8,497 bases of DNA, taken from the NCBI GenBank assembly GCA_038826135.1, contig JAWBON010000049.1:1-8497 (forward strand). The letters run 5' to 3'. The translations under genes were made by a program, and so were the position numbers. The notes below the pieces were generated by a model that worked only from the letters and a program-made list of their open reading frames with translations, did no database searches and was not told where the DNA came from. Source of the stretch: Candidatus Odinarchaeota archaeon. Lineage in GTDB: Archaea > Asgardarchaeota > Odinarchaeia > Odinarchaeales > Odinarchaeaceae. Every line of letters begins with the position of its first letter. Position 1 is the stretch's first letter. Of the stretch, positions 1 to 8,214 are shown in pieces.

Positions 1-708
1 ATCCGGTGAAGCTGGAACCGCGTCTGGGAGCCATCCGTGGAACGGGACTATTCCTATGTCGGCTCCAAGTCCGGCTACTATAAGAGCTACCGCTAGCAGT
101 GTTAGATTAGGGTTAGCTTGCAACAGCTCCGGTTTATCATATAACCCGTATATCGTGAAGTCCCCTGCCAGGTTGAATAATATTATTATGCCGGCTAAAA
201 ACAGGATGGCGCTGATGGCGGTTATAATCAGGTATTTGAAGGCTGCTTGAAGCGCGAATTTACCATGGCTGTGCGTTACAAGTATCACGGTTACGCCTAT
301 AGTTGTCTCAACTAATATGAATAATACTATTATATCGTAGAATAATACCAGCCCAAGCATCACACTTAATAATAATAGTATGAATATGCTGAAGACTGGT
401 GGTGAAAGCCGGCCCCCTTCTTTTTCAACCGTGAAATTATAAAGCGAGGATAGGAACGCTACTGTCGTGATAGCTAATAGGATTCCTATTGTTGACGGTT
501 TAACCTGGATTGGTAGGATCGGGTGCTGTATTATGCTGGCTTGCAAAGTGACTGACGGTATCATAAGTAGACTGGTTGATAATGTGATAAGTGTGGCGGC
601 TATAAGGAGTATTCTACTGCTTTTAGCCCAGACTAGTTCGAATGGTGTAACTATTAGAGCCGCTACTAGCGGGGTGAAGAAGCAGATGACAGGTAATATT
701 TCAATCAT
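1..708 (-). CDS. Antiporter-like membrane subunit (HyfF/NuoN/MrpD-type; proton-conducting membrane transporter family), 3' end outside the window
   Basis: Not in the ORF track; I translated it by hand. The ATG at 708-706 overlaps the stop of the upstream gene (ATGATTGA, 8-nt overlap), and the frame is open for 236 codons to position 1: MIEILPVICFFTPLVAALIVTPF...LFILVETTIGVTVILV...ALQAAFKYLIITAISAILFLAGI...GLGADIGIVPFHGWLPDAVPASPD. It contains the family signatures TM5 Glu (LVE, E134), 'AAFKY' and 'PFHxWLPDA'. Confidence 0.9.
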   Translation of the reverse strand, partial: MIEILPVICFFTPLVAALIVTPFELVWAKSSRILLIAATLITLSTSLLMIPSVTLQASIIQHPILPIQVKPSTIGILLAITTVAFLSSLYNFTVEKEGGRLSPPVFSIFILLLLSVMLGLVLFYDIIVLFILVETTIGVTVILVTHSHGKFALQAAFKYLIITAISAILFLAGIIILFNLAGDFTIYGLYDKPELLQANPNLTLLAVALIVAGLGADIGIVPFHGWLPDAVPASPD

Positions 709-1381
709 AGTTTACACTCCACTCTGAAACGTTGATAGTCTTATATTTTTTAAGCATTTCAACTATTATGAAAACGGCGATAATATTTACAAGGATTAGA
801 GATGTTAACTCTAATATAATGTAGGGTAAAGGTAAACTTGACAGTAAAGGCGTGAAGGCGTTAATCGCCATGTTTAAGGCTACTATTATTTTAACAGCGT
901 CTCTGTTTAATATCATACCTATCACGCTGTTAATGAAAATCAGTATTGATAAAGGTAGCATTAGAAGCTCTCCTGGTAGTATGCTGGTGTAAAACATGTA
1001 GATTGAGAAACATAGGAAAACTGTGTTGAAGCCTAGTATCGCTGGCAGGGTTTTTTTGAATTCGATAATTGGTGGAATGTAAGATGGACTGGCTGTTTTC
1101 AAAGCTTTACTTATTAGGAAAGAGGCTTTAACAATTCTGATTATTAAGGGTATTACTATAATTGTTACGAGAATCTCTATTACTAGGGCTTCCAGATCGT
1201 ATATTGAAAGCTGGTAGGCTCCGAGTATTATTTGCTGAAGATAATAGACTAAATTTACTAGTATGACTGTTAGAGCTTGAGCGGCCAGTATTTTCACGCT
1301 TTTCATATTATCTTTAACAGTTATACCTGTTATTGTTAGTCCGGCGGCTAATATGTAGAATACGAGTTGTATGATACTCAT
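701..1381 (-). CDS. hyfE: HyfE-like membrane subunit (C-terminal half NuoK/MrpC-like)
   Basis: 226 aa, about 7 hydrophobic segments. It resembles HyfE as recalled: TVKDNMKSVKILAAQAL vs SVKSYRLSCGFYACQSL; IIVIPLII vs VLLVPLIM; C-terminal YKTINVSEW vs HGTLDVNNL. It sits between NuoL/HyfD-like and HyfF-like genes, as in the hyfD-E-F order. Confidence 0.7.
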   Translation of the reverse strand: MSIIQLVFYILAAGLTITGITVKDNMKSVKILAAQALTVILVNLVYYLQQIILGAYQLSIYDLEALVIEILVTIIVIPLIIRIVKASFLISKALKTASPSYIPPIIEFKKTLPAILGFNTVFLCFSIYMFYTSILPGELLMLPLSILIFINSVIGMILNRDAVKIIVALNMAINAFTPLLSSLPLPYIILELTSLILVNIIAVFIIVEMLKKYKTINVSEWSVNYD

Positions 1382-1393
1382 TTTGAATGCGCC

Positions 1394-1436
1394 TTTATAT
1401 TTTATTTGATGTGTTTTTAGTTTCTTGAATTTTTAA
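1394..1436. repeat. Two motifs shared with the spacer upstream of the NuoC-like gene (copy 1)
   Basis: TTTATATTTTATTT at 1394-1407 and CTTGAATTTTTAA at 1424-1436. Exact copies lie at 3904-3917 and 3888-3900. Confidence 0.7.
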
Positions 1437-1442
1437 CGGGAA

Positions 1443-3428
1443 TTATATTATTAACGCGATTAACGTTATTATCAGTGTTCCAGTTAGGAACATTAATACC
1501 GCTTTCAGATAGGGGCCTACATCTAATTTTAACATTTTCCTGCTCAATCTGTCAATTAGGCTTGTGATTTTTTCCAGTGCTTTATCCACATCTAATATGC
1601 GGGCGGTTTTTTTAAGTTTAAGCAGATCCACCAAGTAATAGTAGAATTGCTCTGTATAGGTGGTTTTAATAACGGTTATATCCTCCCCACCTATGAACGG
1701 TTTCTCGGCTTCAACGCTTTTCTTTCTTGTTTTTCTCCGTCTACCGACTAAAACCACGTAGGCTAGCATTCCCGATATGGTTAGAGCTGATGCGCCTATC
1801 GTTATAAAGCTTAGAAAACCGGTTCCGGTGATGATTAAATCAAAGCTTTCCAGTATTGGGAGGGTTAAGCCTGATTGAATTATAGCTGGTTTGATGAAAA
1901 CATCTAATAGAATTGTTGGTGCTACTCCGAATATGAATACCAGTATTGCCACGGTGAAGATGGGTGCAAGCATTATTTTAGAAGGGTCCTTAAATGTTTT
2001 CTTATCGCTTGTTGTATAGGTTGTGGTTAAAAACACGCTATTAAGTATTCTGATCGCGATAACGATGTGGAGGGCGGCTCCTATGAACATAATTATTATG
2101 AAGAAGGGGGAGCCTACGCTTAGAGCCGCGTTTATGATTAGATATTTACCTATGAACTCGCTTAGAAGGGGCATCCCTCCGACTGCTATTACACTTATAA
2201 TCGCTCCGACAGCTGTCAGAGGCATGTACTGGTATAGGTTTCCGATCTCGTTTATATTTGTTTTACCGGTAGCGTATTCAACTGAACCGTATGATAGGAA
2301 TAAGAGGGTTGAAATCAGTGTGTGAGATATTGTATAATATAGGCAGGCGGTTATTCCTAACGGTGTTGAAAGACCAGCGGCTATCAGTATTAGACCTGTC
2401 TCTGAAACTGTTGTGAAGGCGATGATTCTTTTATAATTGTTTTCCAGCATTCCGTAGACTGCGCCTATGATAAGGGTGATTGAACCTATCATCATCACTG
2501 TGAAATTCCAGATTGTGATATCTCCGAATATGAGTGGGAGAGGCATTAGCGGTAGTGCTGCAAGTTGGTGGCTGAAAATATGGAATAGAAATCTTAATAA
2601 TAAGTAGACGCCGACTTGGAAGCCGCATACGTGGAAAACTATTATTGAAGGCGAAGGCGCGGTGGTGCTGTCAGGGAACCATGTGTGGAATGGGATTTGA
2701 TCTGTTTTCGGCATTGCAGCGCATAGTATAAGGGTTGCTCCGACTATTATTAGCGGGGTGCCTGGCGGGAGGATATCTTTTAGAGCTGTTATTTGAGTTG
2801 TGCCTGTGGCGGTTAACATTATTAACGTGAACGTTAAGAGGGCTAGGCCGCCTATATGGGTTAGTATGAGGCTTTTAACAGCAGCTTTCAAGCTTCTTTC
2901 AGTCTGCCCCGGATAGTTTATGAACAGATAGGTGCAGATTGTTACCAACTCTATGCTGAATAGAAGGCCTATAAGATCAGCTGAAAAAACCGCTCCTATT
3001 AAAGCCCCTGTGAAGATAAGGGTGAGCGGGTGGCTTCTATTATAACCTGTTATATTATAAGCATTATTTTCTTGGGAATAATAATTTAAAGTATATATTT
3101 GAAGGGATAGACATATGAAAGTTGATATGAGCGCGGGGATTATTGCTATGTAGTCGATGTATAATCCGAGTTTAATTAAACTTGAGCCTAGAGGGATGGT
3201 AAAATATTCTATGCTAACCGGCGCGGCTTGTATTATTATAGCTAACCATACTAGTATTGCGAGTGTGGCTGTTAAAGCGATTATACTCGTTTTTAACAGA
3301 ATTTTTCTAAGGCTTATCACTTTAGCTAAAAAAAATATTATAAGACCAGTTATAACAGGTAAGAGAATACTAGCCAGCGAGAGTATCTCTGTGAACACGG
3401 TATTCACCTTACCTTGTTTAAAAGTCAT
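1443..3428 (-). CDS. nuoL: NuoL/MrpA/HyfD-type antiporter-like subunit with C-terminal lateral-helix region
   Basis: 661 aa, highly hydrophobic. It has TM5 Glu (FSIELVT, E160), KTDQIPFHTWFPD (KSAQxPxxxWLPD-like, K241), TM8 His (VFHV, H266) followed by GVYLLLR, YKRIIAFTT, SHxLxxxLLFLxxGSV, and GGMPLLSEFIGK (K428). The His in TM8 points to the NuoL/MrpA/HyfD class. The symbol denotes family, not proven complex I orthology. Confidence 0.88.
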   Translation of the reverse strand: MTFKQGKVNTVFTEILSLASILLPVITGLIIFFLAKVISLRKILLKTSIIALTATLAILVWLAIIIQAAPVSIEYFTIPLGSSLIKLGLYIDYIAIIPALISTFICLSLQIYTLNYYSQENNAYNITGYNRSHPLTLIFTGALIGAVFSADLIGLLFSIELVTICTYLFINYPGQTERSLKAAVKSLILTHIGGLALLTFTLIMLTATGTTQITALKDILPPGTPLIIVGATLILCAAMPKTDQIPFHTWFPDSTTAPSPSIIVFHVCGFQVGVYLLLRFLFHIFSHQLAALPLMPLPLIFGDITIWNFTVMMIGSITLIIGAVYGMLENNYKRIIAFTTVSETGLILIAAGLSTPLGITACLYYTISHTLISTLLFLSYGSVEYATGKTNINEIGNLYQYMPLTAVGAIISVIAVGGMPLLSEFIGKYLIINAALSVGSPFFIIIMFIGAALHIVIAIRILNSVFLTTTYTTSDKKTFKDPSKIMLAPIFTVAILVFIFGVAPTILLDVFIKPAIIQSGLTLPILESFDLIITGTGFLSFITIGASALTISGMLAYVVLVGRRRKTRKKSVEAEKPFIGGEDITVIKTTYTEQFYYYLVDLLKLKKTARILDVDKALEKITSLIDRLSRKMLKLDVGPYLKAVLMFLTGTLIITLIALII

Positions 3429-3445
3429 ATTATTTAAATATGACT
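3423..3445. repeat. Perfect 9-bp inverted repeat overlapping the start codon of the NuoL-like gene
   Basis: AGTCATATT (3423-3431), 5-nt loop, AATATGACT (3437-3445). The minus-strand ATG is at 3428-3426. Confidence 0.85.
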
Positions 3446-3451
3446 AGTAAA

Positions 3452-3886
3452 CTATGTTTTACGCTTAAGCATGACCGGTTTATCCGTCGAGTCGTCGGGC
3501 ATTATAATTCTACCCTGTTTTAATCCTTTAAAATTTAAGCCGTACAAGTCTCTGGCTTCTTTTTCAAGGTTTTCAGCCCCTTTCATTATATCTGCTATGC
3601 TTTCCACAGTTAAATCATCACAGGATATTTTTATTTTTAAAGCAGCTAGGACTCCATTATTCTCCAAGTAATAGATTAGCTGAATTGCTCCTTCTAATTC
3701 CACCGGTATAATGGTGATTATACTATTGTAGCCTTGCTGTTTAAAAAATAGGGCGGCTTCTTTTATTTTACCGGGATTTAACTCTACTTCTATATCATTA
3801 TTTTTAAATTTCACATCTATGATCTCACCAGCTCCTATCCGATTTTTCAACAATTCTATTATGCTGGGTTCACTCACTTGTATCAA
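3452..3886 (-). CDS. nuoC: NuoC/EchD-like (complex I 30 kDa family) soluble subunit
   Basis: 144 aa with TTG start (in-frame GTG at 3877 is an alternative). The C-terminal motif VESIADIMKGAENLEKEARDLYGLNFKG...RIIMPDD matches the NuoC pattern vpSi..i...A...ErEa.DlfGi.F.G...RillP.d. The symbol denotes family. Confidence 0.85.
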   Translation of the reverse strand: MIQVSEPSIIELLKNRIGAGEIIDVKFKNNDIEVELNPGKIKEAALFFKQQGYNSIITIIPVELEGAIQLIYYLENNGVLAALKIKISCDDLTVESIADIMKGAENLEKEARDLYGLNFKGLKQGRIIMPDDSTDKPVMLKRKT

Positions 3887-4022: not shown

Positions 4023-6623
4023 TTAGGCGTTTTTTTTATAGAATCTTTTTTTAGCGAATTCAACTGTTGCCAGGTATGCGCCGACTATTAAGATTAAAAC
4101 TATGTAGAATAATATTGGTGGTTCTGTGAATCCGAAGATTTTGCCGAGAGTAGTGTAGGGGAGTATTAGAGCGGTAACTGTTACTATTATACCTGCGAGT
4201 AATAATGGTTTGCTGGGTTTGCTCTTATAGAATGGGCGGCTTGTCCGTATAAAGTATACTACTAGTGTCTGGGTTATCAAGGATTCTGTGAACCATGCTG
4301 TTTGGAAGAGTGCCGGTGTAGCGTTGAATACTAGTAGCATTACGAAGAATGTTATGAAGTCGAATATGGAGCTTATCGGTCCGAAATATAGCATGGCGTT
4401 TTTTATCCGATGCATATCCCATCTTCTAGGTGTTTGAATGAATTCTTTGTCAACGCTGTCTGTCGGTAAGGGTATTTGAGCTGTATCGTATAATAGATTG
4501 TTTAATAGTATTTGCCCTGGTAGCATTGGTAGGAATGGTAGGAAAAGGGATGCTCCTGCTACGCTGAACATGTTTCCGAAGTTGGAGCTTACGCCTATCG
4601 ATATATATTTTAAGGTGTTCGTGAAGGTTTTCCGGCCTTCTATTACACCGTCATGTAGTACTCTTAGCTTTTTTTCAAGTAGGATTAGGTCGGCGGCTTC
4701 TTTAGCAACATCTACAGCGTTATCTACTGATATTCCCACGTCAGCGGTTTTAAGGGATGGAGCGTCGTTTATTCCATCTCCTAGGAATCCCACTACGTGG
4801 CCGTTTGCTTTAAGCGTGGCGATTATGCGCTCTTTGTCAGCGGGTGTTACCCGGCAGAAAATATTGTTTTCCTCCACTATTCTGGAAAGGGCCACACCGT
4901 CGGCTTCGCTCACCTGTTCGCCTACTATTATTCCTTTAATTTCAAGATCTATGTACTCGCAGATTTTTTGAGTTACAAGCTCGTTATCGCCTGTTAGGAT
5001 TTTAAGCTCTATGCCTGCTTCTTTTAACAGTTTTATAGATTCTTTGACTGATTCTTTCGGGGGATCTATGAATGCAACGTATCCTAGGAAAATCATATCA
5101 GTTTCGTCGTTGACCGTGTAGAGTGTTTTACTACTACTGTCCTTCTTATAGCATACGCCTAAGACTCTGAAGCCTTCTTTGCTTAACTCTGTATATTTAT
5201 CCAATATTTTCCTGTTATCTTCATCTGTAAGGTTTTTTATGATACTGTCTTCTTCTATGCGATTACAGATTTTCCGGATTTCTTCGGGTGCTCCTTTCGA
5301 TATTAATATTTTTTCATCGCTTGATTCAACTACTATAGTTATTCTTTTTCTTGTGAAGTCGAACGGTATTTCATCTATTTTCTTATATTCTTGAACTTGG
5401 AGTTCTCTATGTTTCAGTATGGCTTCATCTAGTGGGCTTTTAAGCCCGGTTTGATGCAGGCTATTAAGATACGAGTATAGTAATACTTTTTCATCATCAT
5501 CACCGTCTACGTCGATGTGTTTTACTAGAACTATTTTATTCTCTGTGAGGGTTCCTGTTTTATCAGCGCATAGGATGTTCATGCCGCCGAAGTTTTGTAT
5601 CGCGGCTAGTTTTTTCACGATTACGCCTTTTTTAGCCATTTCTATGGCTCCTGATGTAAGATTTACTGATAGTATCATTGGCAGTAGATCTGGGGTTAAC
5701 CCTACTGCTAAGGCTACTGAGAATATTAACGAGTCTAGTATTCCATGTTTTAGGAGAGCGTTTATGAAGAACACGAATATTATTAATGTGAATGTGACTT
5801 GCAGTAATAGATAGCCGAACCGTCTTAAACCTCGCTGATACTCTGTTTCAGGGGCTTTAGCTGCAAGCCTTGCAGCTATTTTCCCGTATACTGTGTAAGG
5901 CCCTGTTTTAAGAGCTAGCGCTGTGGCTGTTCCGCTGACTACTGATGTGCCTAGGAAGACGGCGTTACTGTATTCCGTGATATTCTTGTAAGCTTTATCC
6001 AGTATTGGTTTCTTCTCCACCGGTATTGATTCACCGGTTAAAGCGGACTGGTTTACGAAGAAGTCTTTAGCGGTTATTACTCTGCTATCGGCTGGGATCA
6101 TGTCTCCGGCTGATAGGAATACTATGTCTCCGGGAACTATCTCTGATAATAGGATTTCTTTTTTAACCTGGTCTCTTAGCACTGTAGCCGTGGTTGTGAC
6201 TTTTTGTTTAAGCAGGGTTGCGGCTTTATCAGCTTTAGCTTCTTGATAATAGTCTAAGGCTACGCTTACACCTATTATCGTGAATATTATTACGGCGTTA
6301 AGTGCTTCACCGAAGAATATTGATATTAACCCTGCTCCAAGCAATATCAATAATATAGGGTTTTTAAAATGAGCTAGAAATTGGAGGATGCTTATTTTTC
6401 TTTTTTTACCTATGAATTCATTATACCCGTATATGTCTAATAGAGCTTCAGCGTTTTCAGAGCTGAGACCCTGCTCTGAAGTGTTTAAATAATAATATGT
6501 TTGCTCAACTGGCTGTGACAGTAATTTATTTATTTCAATTATTTGCTGGGGGTTAACTTCTCGACTGAACTGCTTATTCTTCATTAAACTGGCTCTGTAT
6601 GTTACCCCCGCCAAATCTATCAC
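4023..6623 (-). CDS. mgtA: Magnesium-translocating P-type ATPase (P3B, MgtA/MgtB-like)
   Basis: 866 aa with TGES (NQSALTGES), phosphorylation motif DKTGT (D354, codon 5564-5562), KGAPEE, TGDN and GDGINDAP. It also has MgtA-typical membrane motifs SSNFGNMFS, LLYDTAQ, GPISSIFD and WFTESLITQTLV..IRT. The true start is uncertain: GTG 6623, TTG 6614 (preceded by GGTGA) or ATG 6584. Confidence 0.9.
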   Translation of the reverse strand: MIDLAGVTYRASLMKNKQFSREVNPQQIIEINKLLSQPVEQTYYYLNTSEQGLSSENAEALLDIYGYNEFIGKKRKISILQFLAHFKNPILLILLGAGLISIFFGEALNAVIIFTIIGVSVALDYYQEAKADKAATLLKQKVTTTATVLRDQVKKEILLSEIVPGDIVFLSAGDMIPADSRVITAKDFFVNQSALTGESIPVEKKPILDKAYKNITEYSNAVFLGTSVVSGTATALALKTGPYTVYGKIAARLAAKAPETEYQRGLRRFGYLLLQVTFTLIIFVFFINALLKHGILDSLIFSVALAVGLTPDLLPMILSVNLTSGAIEMAKKGVIVKKLAAIQNFGGMNILCADKTGTLTENKIVLVKHIDVDGDDDEKVLLYSYLNSLHQTGLKSPLDEAILKHRELQVQEYKKIDEIPFDFTRKRITIVVESSDEKILISKGAPEEIRKICNRIEEDSIIKNLTDEDNRKILDKYTELSKEGFRVLGVCYKKDSSSKTLYTVNDETDMIFLGYVAFIDPPKESVKESIKLLKEAGIELKILTGDNELVTQKICEYIDLEIKGIIVGEQVSEADGVALSRIVEENNIFCRVTPADKERIIATLKANGHVVGFLGDGINDAPSLKTADVGISVDNAVDVAKEAADLILLEKKLRVLHDGVIEGRKTFTNTLKYISIGVSSNFGNMFSVAGASLFLPFLPMLPGQILLNNLLYDTAQIPLPTDSVDKEFIQTPRRWDMHRIKNAMLYFGPISSIFDFITFFVMLLVFNATPALFQTAWFTESLITQTLVVYFIRTSRPFYKSKPSKPLLLAGIIVTVTALILPYTTLGKIFGFTEPPILFYIVLILIVGAYLATVEFAKKRFYKKNA

Positions 6624-6655: not shown

Positions 6656-6719
6656 TCTTATAAGGATTTATATAAGTATAATAATATATTTTAACCAGCC
6701 CGCTTTAAAGGTTTAAAAT
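6656..6719. promoter_or_regulatory. Divergent mgtA/mscL promoter region with TATA-like boxes
   Basis: Palindromic CTTATAAG (6657-6664) and TTATATAA (6668-6675) could serve mgtA on the minus strand. TTTAAAGG (6704-6711) or TTTAAAAT (6712-6719) could serve mscL. The region is AT-rich, so individual assignments are tentative. Confidence 0.4.
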
Positions 6720-6735
6720 TAAACGGGGATTGGAA

Positions 6736-7107
6736 ATGTCTGATGAAGAAATACTAGAAGAGTTGAAAAAGATACGTGCAGTTCTTGAACCTAAACCAGC
6801 CCCTCCACCGCCTAAACCTAAGAATCTTGTAGAAGAATTCAAAATGTTCATAGCTAAATACAAGATTTTAGGGCTCGCTGTCGCCTTCGTCATGGCTATC
6901 TACGTCGGTAATTTGATTCAAGCATTAGTCAACTCGTTCATTCTCCCGATCGTGAACTTTGTTCTACCGCCAGGTATCGGCTGGGAGACGTGGGCTATAG
7001 GACCGTTTACTATTGGTCTTTTCCTCAGCGCGTTGATAACATTCATCATCGTGATGTTCGTTATCTTCCTGATGGTTAAACTAACCTCAAGGCTTGGCAT
7101 AGAATAA
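6736..7107 (+). CDS. mscL: Large-conductance mechanosensitive channel MscL family protein (atypical, N-terminally extended)
   Basis: The ATG at 6736 has GGGGA 6 nt upstream and is preferred over TTG 6730. The 123-aa product has the S1 helix EEFKMFI (F7/F10 equivalents), TM1 LAVAFVMAIYVGNLIQALVNSFILP, and TM2 GLFLSALITFIIVMFVIFLMVK (G.FL.A.I.F.I..F.IF...K pattern). Confidence 0.88.
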   Translation: MSDEEILEELKKIRAVLEPKPAPPPPKPKNLVEEFKMFIAKYKILGLAVAFVMAIYVGNLIQALVNSFILPIVNFVLPPGIGWETWAIGPFTIGLFLSALITFIIVMFVIFLMVKLTSRLGIE

Positions 7108-7113
7108 AAAGCC

Positions 7114-7130
7114 TATTTCTTTATTTTTTT
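7114..7130 (+). terminator. Oligo-T (archaeal-type) terminator of mscL
   Basis: TATTTCTTTATTTTTTT begins 7 nt after the mscL TAA and ends in a T7 run at 7124-7130. Confidence 0.5.
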
Positions 7131-7296: not shown

Positions 7297-8214
7297 TTAT
7301 TTTCCGGTTTTTCTCTCGTATTCTAGTATTTTACTGCATATTAGTCCGCGCCTGTATTTTACTCCTTTACAGTCTTCGATTTTATAGCTGGAAGGGTCTA
7401 GTTTACACTTGGATTTGAGAGTTGGGTCGTAGTATTCGCAGATGTTTTCTTTTGAAGTGTGTTTTAATAATAGGGCTGTGATTCTTTCATCGCTCTGGTT
7501 TAGGCTTAAAAGTTTGCCTGTTTCTAAGCTGATTAATTGGAGGCTTTCTTTATGCTTGTATGTTACGGCCATGGCTCCTAGTATTGTGAATGGTATGATG
7601 AGGGCTAAACCTGTTACGAACCGGTAGGGGTAGAGTTGGTTTCCTGGTATGCTTATGATTAAAACTTCTATTAGGAGGCAGGTGACTGCTATGATCAGTA
7701 ACTCAAGTTTCGCTTTTAATAGTGGTGTTTGAGTTTTTCTATGAGCGGCGCCAGCTACTATTACCAGGCTTATTACTACTAGTGAGAACAGAGTGTTTGC
7801 TATCGTTAGTGATAGTTCCGCATTCGGTAAACCTGTTACTGTCCAGTCGAGGTAATCGTAGAATTTGAATATAAAGATTGTAGCGCAGACTATTATTATG
7901 AGAAGGCCTGTTTTCACATTCGCCGGGTTGAAATATATTTTTGCCATGCCGTATATTAGAGTTAACACGCCGATGAGGATTAAAACCGTGTAGATTAGGT
8001 TTGCGGTTGCGTAAACCGGGCTGGTTACTGGATAGAATAACTCTGTTGTTAACAGTGGCATTGCGATTGTTATTGTTAAGCTTAATGTGATGAAGCTTTT
8101 AGTTAAAGTGTTGAATCCTGAACGGCTTTGATAATACATGTATACTGTAGCAGCCAGCCACAGGATTGTCACTCCTATGATTGTGGGAAATAGTATGAAA
8201 GGTGGTTCCTGCAT
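7297..8214 (-). CDS. Hypothetical 7-TM membrane protein with cytoplasmic C-terminal four-Cys motif
   Basis: 305 aa ORF from ATG 8214 with GGAGA about 9 nt upstream. It has seven hydrophobic stretches within about residues 6-218, then a hydrophilic tail containing C259-x10-C270-x11-C282-x10-C293. I recognise no family. Confidence 0.8.
   Translation of the reverse strand: MQEPPFILFPTIIGVTILWLAATVYMYYQSRSGFNTLTKSFITLSLTITIAMPLLTTELFYPVTSPVYATANLIYTVLILIGVLTLIYGMAKIYFNPANVKTGLLIIIVCATIFIFKFYDYLDWTVTGLPNAELSLTIANTLFSLVVISLVIVAGAAHRKTQTPLLKAKLELLIIAVTCLLIEVLIISIPGNQLYPYRFVTGLALIIPFTILGAMAVTYKHKESLQLISLETGKLLSLNQSDERITALLLKHTSKENICEYYDPTLKSKCKLDPSSYKIEDCKGVKYRRGLICSKILEYERKTGK

Follow-up and report, generated by a model that had tools for sequence, protein, structure and literature searches.

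Results

The window analysed is one entire contig (C49, 8497 bp) of an archaeal MAG, and its DNA is present in hot-spring metagenomes. An open reading frame on the forward strand at window positions 6736–7107 (123 codons plus TAA) is the mscL gene, of the N-helix subfamily described below, as indicated by the ORF list, its translation and the Pfam family PF01741. It encodes a 123-residue protein whose translation matches exactly the one quoted in an earlier, sequence-only reading of this DNA, and it is the sole MscL of the source MAG (1.26 Mb, 93% complete). Divergent from mscL, across a 112-bp AT-rich spacer, lies the gene of an 866-residue magnesium-translocating P-type ATPase of the MgtA type (4023–6623, reverse strand; GTG start; TIGR01524, 922 bits against a cut-off of 611). 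A putative TATA-like element, TTTATATAA, is located at 6667–6675, with no strand assigned, in this AT-rich divergent intergenic region common to mgtA. On the other side, a T-rich run 3′ of the mscL stop codon (7116–7130, forward strand) is read as a likely archaeal terminator, and the reverse strand of 7297–8214 encodes a 305-residue polytopic membrane protein whose cytoplasmic tail is rich in Cys and which matches no Pfam or NCBIfam family. The reverse strand of 1–3886 carries part of a Mrp/Mbh-type membrane complex, including a 144-residue NuoC-like 30-kDa domain protein, a 661-residue antiporter-like subunit (Proton_antipo_M), a 226-residue membrane protein without family match and a membrane ORF running off the contig end.

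ATG 6736 is the preferred start codon over the in-frame TTG at 6730, because homologues open with M-S/K-, because a putative Shine-Dalgarno-like GGGGA (6725–6729, forward strand) sits 7–11 nt 5′ of the ATG and, weakly, because a 1-nt insertion in one strain contig separates the two codons. This insertion (window position 6733, run X3) would throw TTG 6730 out of frame; the depth is about 5 and the insertion may be an error. One contig over 6779–7015 comes from a run labelled metatranscriptomic that is probably DNA, and the contigs are uninformative on starts.

Judged by its sequence, the protein is a genuine member of the MscL family, predicted to form a pentameric, tension-gated pore of large conductance, and belongs to a large archaeal N-helix subfamily. 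Residues 31–117 match positions 1–95 of the 123-position Pfam MscL profile (PF01741; 49.8 bits, cut-off 27.4), while positions ~96–123, corresponding to the C-terminal cytoplasmic helix, are unmatched, residue 123 being the last of the protein. Aligned by BLASTP with E. coli MscL (from NC_000913), residues 30–121 correspond to 2–103. The constant offset of 28 proposed from the letters alone (F35/F38 = F7/F10, G58 = G30) is thereby borne out, as is, from the translation and the Pfam match ending at 95 of 123, the stop a few residues beyond TM2, with the usual C-terminal linker and helix missing. None of the NCBIfam MscL equivalog models (TIGR00220, NF010557-60, NF001841-3) reached its curated cut-off: the best match scored 44 bits against 176, and TIGR00220 scored 35.2 against 71. 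These matches were restricted to residues 29–120, and the N-terminal extension (residues 1–30) is covered by no curated model.

An AF2 monomer model built from the family alignment (mean pLDDT 82.6) consists of a helix at residues 3–17, coil at 18–30, S1 at 31–42, TM1 at 44–76 and TM2 at 93–119, and together with BLASTP shows the canonical MscL order of S1 with its conserved Phe pair, TM1 and TM2. The amphipathic S1 helix (6826–6861, forward strand, as are all parts of the gene) contains the invariant F35 and F38; the pore-lining TM1 (6865–6963; pLDDT 90–97) and TM2 (7012–7092) align to their E. coli counterparts. They are joined by a short, non-helical periplasmic loop (residues 77–92, PPGIGWETW...; 6964–7011) close to that of Methanosarcina acetivorans MscL. 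A short C-terminal tail (...LGIE) and the stop codon follow at 7093–7107, without linker or helix; G121 is at least 90% conserved. Codon 42 (6859–6861) encodes a Tyr where E. coli MscL has its hinge glycine, G14, between S1 and TM1; conservation of Y42 within the subfamily is at least 90%, and M. acetivorans MscL also has Tyr here. Foldseek of the monomer against the PDB, a method uninformative for a two-helix hairpin, returned no match at E ≤ 0.001, its top row being 4y7j (archaeal MscL; E ~1).

The nearest solved structure is that of M. acetivorans MscL (PDB 4Y7K, 4Y7J; fusion), with E 1.5e-14 over residues 29–116. Like the query it is archaeal, lacks a C-terminal helix, carries the loop motif P-G-x-G-W-E-T and has Tyr at the hinge position held by G14 in E. 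coli; unlike the query, it begins directly at S1, without N-terminal helix or polyproline spacer.

The extension before S1, noticed in the sequence-only reading, is real and conserved, and resolves into two parts: an N-terminal amphipathic helix (residues 3–17; 6742–6786, forward strand; block pLDDT 76–82) and a Pro-rich spacer (residues 18–30, E-P-K-P-A-P-P-P-P-K-P-K-N; 6787–6825, forward strand) that is non-helical in the model (pLDDT ~69). The helix is short and markedly acidic. In a 75-sequence alignment its residues I13 (100%), L7 and L10 (99%), E9 (97%), L17 (95%) and R14 (93%) are highly conserved, and P19, P21 and P23 of the spacer are conserved at 95–97%. Averaged over the same alignment, conservation reached 0.73 in the helix and 0.76 in the spacer, compared with 0.68 in S1, 0.78 in TM1 and 0.79 in TM2. 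The extension is thus conserved about as strongly as the membrane helices, and as this holds across several archaeal phyla, a function is implied for it. The homologues share the motif (D/E)-E-I-L-E-E-L-K/R-x-I-R-x-L-L-E-P-K-P-A-P-P-P...K-G, and the stretch between the equivalents of L17 and E34 measures 14–17 residues and is 43% Pro (121 homologues). The helix can be fitted to a heptad, with I/M6 assigned to d, L7 to e, E9 to g, L10 to a, I13 to d, R14 to e, L/A/V16 to g and L17 to a. An HMM of the extension identified MscL as the sole genuine match in its own genome; the next (E 0.012–0.077) were unrelated helices, and a Cas4-like ORF ranked lower. In the ESM Atlas, residues 1–30 gave no usable feature match once MscL clusters were excluded, and the structural rows were generic single helices.

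We then surveyed the taxonomic range of this N-terminus, as the sequence-only reading had proposed. A search of 5.8 billion proteins yielded 1662 matches, counted as 90%-identity clusters. The 120 of these that were listed are 48–89% identical to the query, 116–154 residues long and cover 82–100% of it (all but one at least 95%); every one of the 120 carries the extension and the motif above. In contigs sampled at one genome per species, relatives turned up in at least 402 species. The best 80 of these species are all Archaea, spread over several phyla: Bathyarchaeota (38), Asgard phyla (12), Thermoplasmatota (10), Nitrososphaerota (8), Thermoproteota (4), Hadarchaeota (2) and Woesearchaeota (1), with 5 unassigned. 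At all 80 of these best loci the extension and the core lie in one ORF, the canonical C-helix occurs at none, and 77 end no more than one residue from the core match. In runs X1 and X2, a second contig from the same hot-spring samples matches only the TM1 stretch 6862–6908, with 5 differences; its flanks differ, with N-E-F-I-D-F-I-S-K-Y upstream, and it probably represents the N-type MscL of another community organism.

The arrangement of cytoplasmic parts across the family was examined with HMMER, in a complete scan of 1.84 billion proteins that used the core alone as query and was reduced to 150 representatives (50%-identity clusters). The 118 complete representatives comprise 21 with the N-helix, 21 with the canonical C-helix, 13 with a C-terminal zinc ribbon and 63 with none of these; N-helix and canonical C-helix were found together in 0 of the 118. 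Neither a tandem MscL nor a dual-helix form was encountered among 23 longer homologues or the 118 complete representatives, in searches that were non-exhaustive. The zinc-ribbon-like C-terminus (C-P-x-C ... C-x-x-C, without bundle helix; P0167, P0168, P0172, P0187, P0194, P0244 and others) constitutes a third cytoplasmic-domain variant of MscL. Three proteins (P0195, P0201, P0233) end in another type of C-terminal helix (...N-A-E-Q-N-A-R/K-I-I-E-L-L-E-Q/K-I...) that the canonical C-helix HMM misses. In P0157, whose core belongs to the N-type clade, a kinase-like fragment with a P-loop (G-F-P-G-S-G-K-T-T) takes the place of the helix; this is a genuine fusion or else a chimera produced by assembly.

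Twenty-two longer relatives (P0123–P0144; 272–329 residues) carry two YegP/HVO_2922 domains (PF07411, NF041908) upstream of the helix, spacer and core. They share the N-helix, Pro-rich spacer and core with the query (48–55% identity over 95–99% of it) and differ from it in the two PF07411 domains and in a long, low-complexity Ser/Thr/Glu-rich linker between these domains and the N-helix, together a cytoplasmic add-on. Helix and spacer stay directly before the core in all 22 fusions, indicating that the helix is part of the channel rather than a free leader.

In a quick maximum-likelihood tree of 98 core columns, a single clade (SH-aLRT 86) contains 23 of the 27 N-type rows and another (96*) contains every C-helix and zinc-ribbon type, with helix-less lineages between them; the M. 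acetivorans type is placed outside the N-type clade. The tree is short, unrooted and poorly resolved, so the order of gain and loss cannot be read from it. Monophyly of the N-type was not rejected by the AU test (p 0.81), which is compatible with a single origin.

The sequence-only reading had taken the N-helix for the C-terminal bundle helix, moved to the other end by circular permutation. To compare the two, a canonical C-tail HMM was started from the E. coli tail and extended iteratively through the C-terminal extensions of the 150 representatives, gathering 22 tails in which a Pro/Ala-rich spacer precedes LL-x-E-I-R-D-L-L. Against the C-helix HMM, 75 N-extensions scored a median of −0.2 bits, equalled by 20% of composition-matched shuffles; against the spacer-plus-helix HMM they fell below shuffles. 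The MscL N-terminus ranked 380 among 8575 six-frame ORFs of its own genome against the C-helix HMM. The E. coli C-tail alone matches the Pfam MscL profile at positions 95–123 (E 0.0035), whereas none of seven N-extensions matched this profile; scanned against Pfam at E ≤ 10, the seven returned stray weak matches to RPAP1_N, Ada3 and HNH_repeat only, and none to MscL. In the HMM comparison of the extension with MscL C-termini suggested in the earlier reading, scores thus did not rise above those of shuffles.

Profile–profile alignment was more favourable. With hhalign, the N-extension scored 17.9 against the full C-tail profile and 17.0 against the helix only, pairing eiLEELkkIRxlLe with e--LLtEIRDlLk; among column shuffles, 1 of 200 and 4 of 400 attained scores of 17–18, about 1 in 100. 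When the N-extension profile was reversed, it gave 8.6–9.4 against the helix but still 15.0 against the full tail, which marks much of the signal as generic. The absent HMM signal is in turn weak evidence against descent, as the C-helix type of P0195, P0201 and P0233 escapes the canonical HMM too. A likeness of motif to the C-terminal helix therefore persists at the profile level and is lost in the Pfam and HMM comparisons. It appears weak, as expected between two short coiled-coil helices, and on these sequence comparisons provides no evidence of descent.

Like the N-helix, the helix of the bacterial C-terminal bundle (E. coli; M. tuberculosis 2OAR) is short, amphipathic and cytoplasmic, and a Pro/Ala-rich spacer of comparable length links it to the membrane domain. 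Its motif LLxEIRDLL is related to the LEELkkIRxLL of the N-helix, although the HMM similarity is not significant. The N-helix is one hydrophobic step longer. The bacterial helix is attached to TM2 at the opposite terminus, with the spacer before it, whereas the N-helix is attached to S1, with the spacer after it. The canonical order is therefore TM2–spacer–helix, and here helix–spacer–S1, TM2 being followed by a few residues only; the placement of the spacer mirrors the canonical one and is not a permutation of it. The proposed circular permutation thus finds partial support: the N-terminal helix and spacer stand as a real, conserved architecture with the C-helix absent, homology to the C-helix could not be demonstrated, and the cyclic order differs from that of a strict permutation.

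Complex prediction with four copies of residues 1–30 and the family alignment gave a median score of 0.37, where the mark was 0.42 and controls scored 0.03–0.13, and so counts neither for nor against a bundle.

Discussion

MscL is the textbook model of force-from-lipid gating. Parallel higher-order coiled coils are marked by hydrophobic a/d positions, partly hydrophobic e/g positions and an acid–base pair from g to e′. In MscL, the S1 helix couples bilayer tension to TM1 (PMC4917966). The canonical C-terminal bundle serves as a sieve and oligomer stabiliser, and in E. coli its lower part stays assembled during opening (PMC5722894); whether the cytoplasmic bundle acts as sieve, oligomer stabiliser or threshold tuner is debated (PMC6167328, PMC5722894). 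The helix is dispensable for family membership: M. acetivorans MscL is functional without it (PMC6167328), which agrees with the earlier remark that some archaeal MscLs lack the helix.

We propose, with a probability of about 0.58, that the N-helices assemble in parallel into a coiled-coil bundle, which hangs from S1 and is the functional analogue of the C-terminal bundle of bacteria. The pentamer would keep its five N-helices at high local concentration, promoting their packing into a short parallel coiled-coil hub under the pore and on its axis. Its a/d positions would be filled by I6, L10, I13 and L17, with L7 and L16 broadening the hydrophobic stripe, and E9 (g) of each helix would form an ion pair with R14 (e′) of its neighbour. 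The hub would hang from the S1 helices on stiff polyproline spacers of about 13 residues, which as polyproline II (~3.1 Å per residue) would span ~35–40 Å, a reach that should suffice for outward S1 movement on opening with the hub still assembled. Such a bundle could do the job of the C-terminal one, stabilising the oligomer and sieving large solutes; as it would also tether the tension-coupling S1, the gating threshold could change.

This model is favoured because, on the heptad assignment above, the conserved residues fall on a/d/e/g positions, including the g–e′ acid–base pair; because none of the 118 complete representatives combines the N-helix (present in 21) with the canonical C-helix (present in 21); because both designs put a Pro/Ala-rich spacer of similar length between helix and membrane domain; and because the two helix profiles are weakly alike, at the level of about 1 in 100 column shuffles. 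Several points weigh on the other side. A 15-residue helix is by itself a marginal coiled coil, and its markedly acidic character would suit a partner-binding motif too. A simply extended spacer would send the helix towards the membrane, opposite to the bacterial C-helix, so the same geometry cannot be assumed. Finally, since M. acetivorans MscL works without a cytoplasmic helix (PMC6167328), the N-helix could have another purpose.

One such purpose would be docking or regulation, with the N-helix acting as a partner site, an autoinhibitory plug or a surface amphipathic sensor on a proline rod, and forming no homo-oligomeric bundle. The helix is short and acid-rich, the N-terminal side accepts extra soluble domains in the YegP/HVO_2922 fusions, and the channel core needs no bundle (PMC6167328). 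We nevertheless regard this as unlikely: what is strictly conserved is a hydrophobic stripe with one g/e acid–base pair, a signature of self-association; an acidic helix is ill-suited to an anionic membrane surface; and the mutual exclusion with the C-terminal bundle helix suggests that the two do the same job. That the extension is an annotation artefact, an untranslated leader ahead of a true start further downstream, has nothing in its favour beyond an in-frame ATG at codon 37, and its probability is negligible. Residues 3–30 are conserved at the amino-acid level across phyla, with I13 invariant, and the helix–spacer module is internal in the YegP/HVO_2922 fusion proteins. A start at M37, raised in the sequence-only reading as a possible refutation, would remove the essential S1 residue F35; this loss and the conservation of the extension in all 120 listed homologues and all of the best 80 genome loci rule it out.

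The N-helix might also be the C-helix by descent, through a true circular permutation in which the C-helix was relocated through tandem duplication or fusion with truncation of both ends and still forms a COMP-like five-helix bundle. A shared L..IR(D/E)LL-type motif, the hhalign scores with their rarity among column shuffles, the mutual exclusion of the two helices and the cytoplasmic location of both termini speak for it, and the C-helices of P0195, P0201 and P0233, although presumably homologous, are likewise missed by the canonical HMM. Against these stand the lack of any Pfam MscL match for the seven N-extensions, as compared with the E. coli tail; C-tail HMM scores at the level of shuffles and the poor rank of the N-terminus among its own genome's ORFs; and the high score of the reversed profile against the full tail. 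Moreover, a permutation would leave the Pro-rich spacer after TM2, not between helix and S1, no tandem or dual-helix protein appeared among the 23 longer matches or 118 complete representatives, and helix-less lineages separate the C-type and N-type clades in the poorly resolved tree. We therefore judge permutation by descent improbable. Descent from the bacterial C-helix is not demonstrable, and we lean towards an origin that is independent or else unresolvable.

Returning to the bundle of N-helices, a hub with rigid polyproline spokes to S1 leads to a further prediction, which we offer tentatively and hold to be rather unlikely: in the majority of TACK, Asgard and Thermoplasmatota archaea, a cytoplasmic tether, and not the bilayer alone, may set the gating threshold and the maximal expansion of MscL. 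A full-text search of open papers turned up no account of MscL being permuted or having an N-terminal helix or polyproline spacer, and MscL N-termini go unmentioned in a 2026 survey of minimal channel sets.

These results disclose a large natural MscL family (at least 402 species genomes; more than 1600 clusters at 90% identity) with a comparable helix on the other end of the subunit, attached to S1. Current Pfam and NCBIfam models of MscL overlook this conserved domain of 30 residues, which most MscLs from uncultured archaea possess, Asgard lineages among them. If the N-helix formed such a hub and were also a relocated bacterial C-helix, the family would represent a natural circular permutation of the channel's oligomerisation domain. 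If the N-helix does bundle, either the same problem was solved twice or a module was moved, and the bundle would matter more than the E. coli truncation studies suggest.
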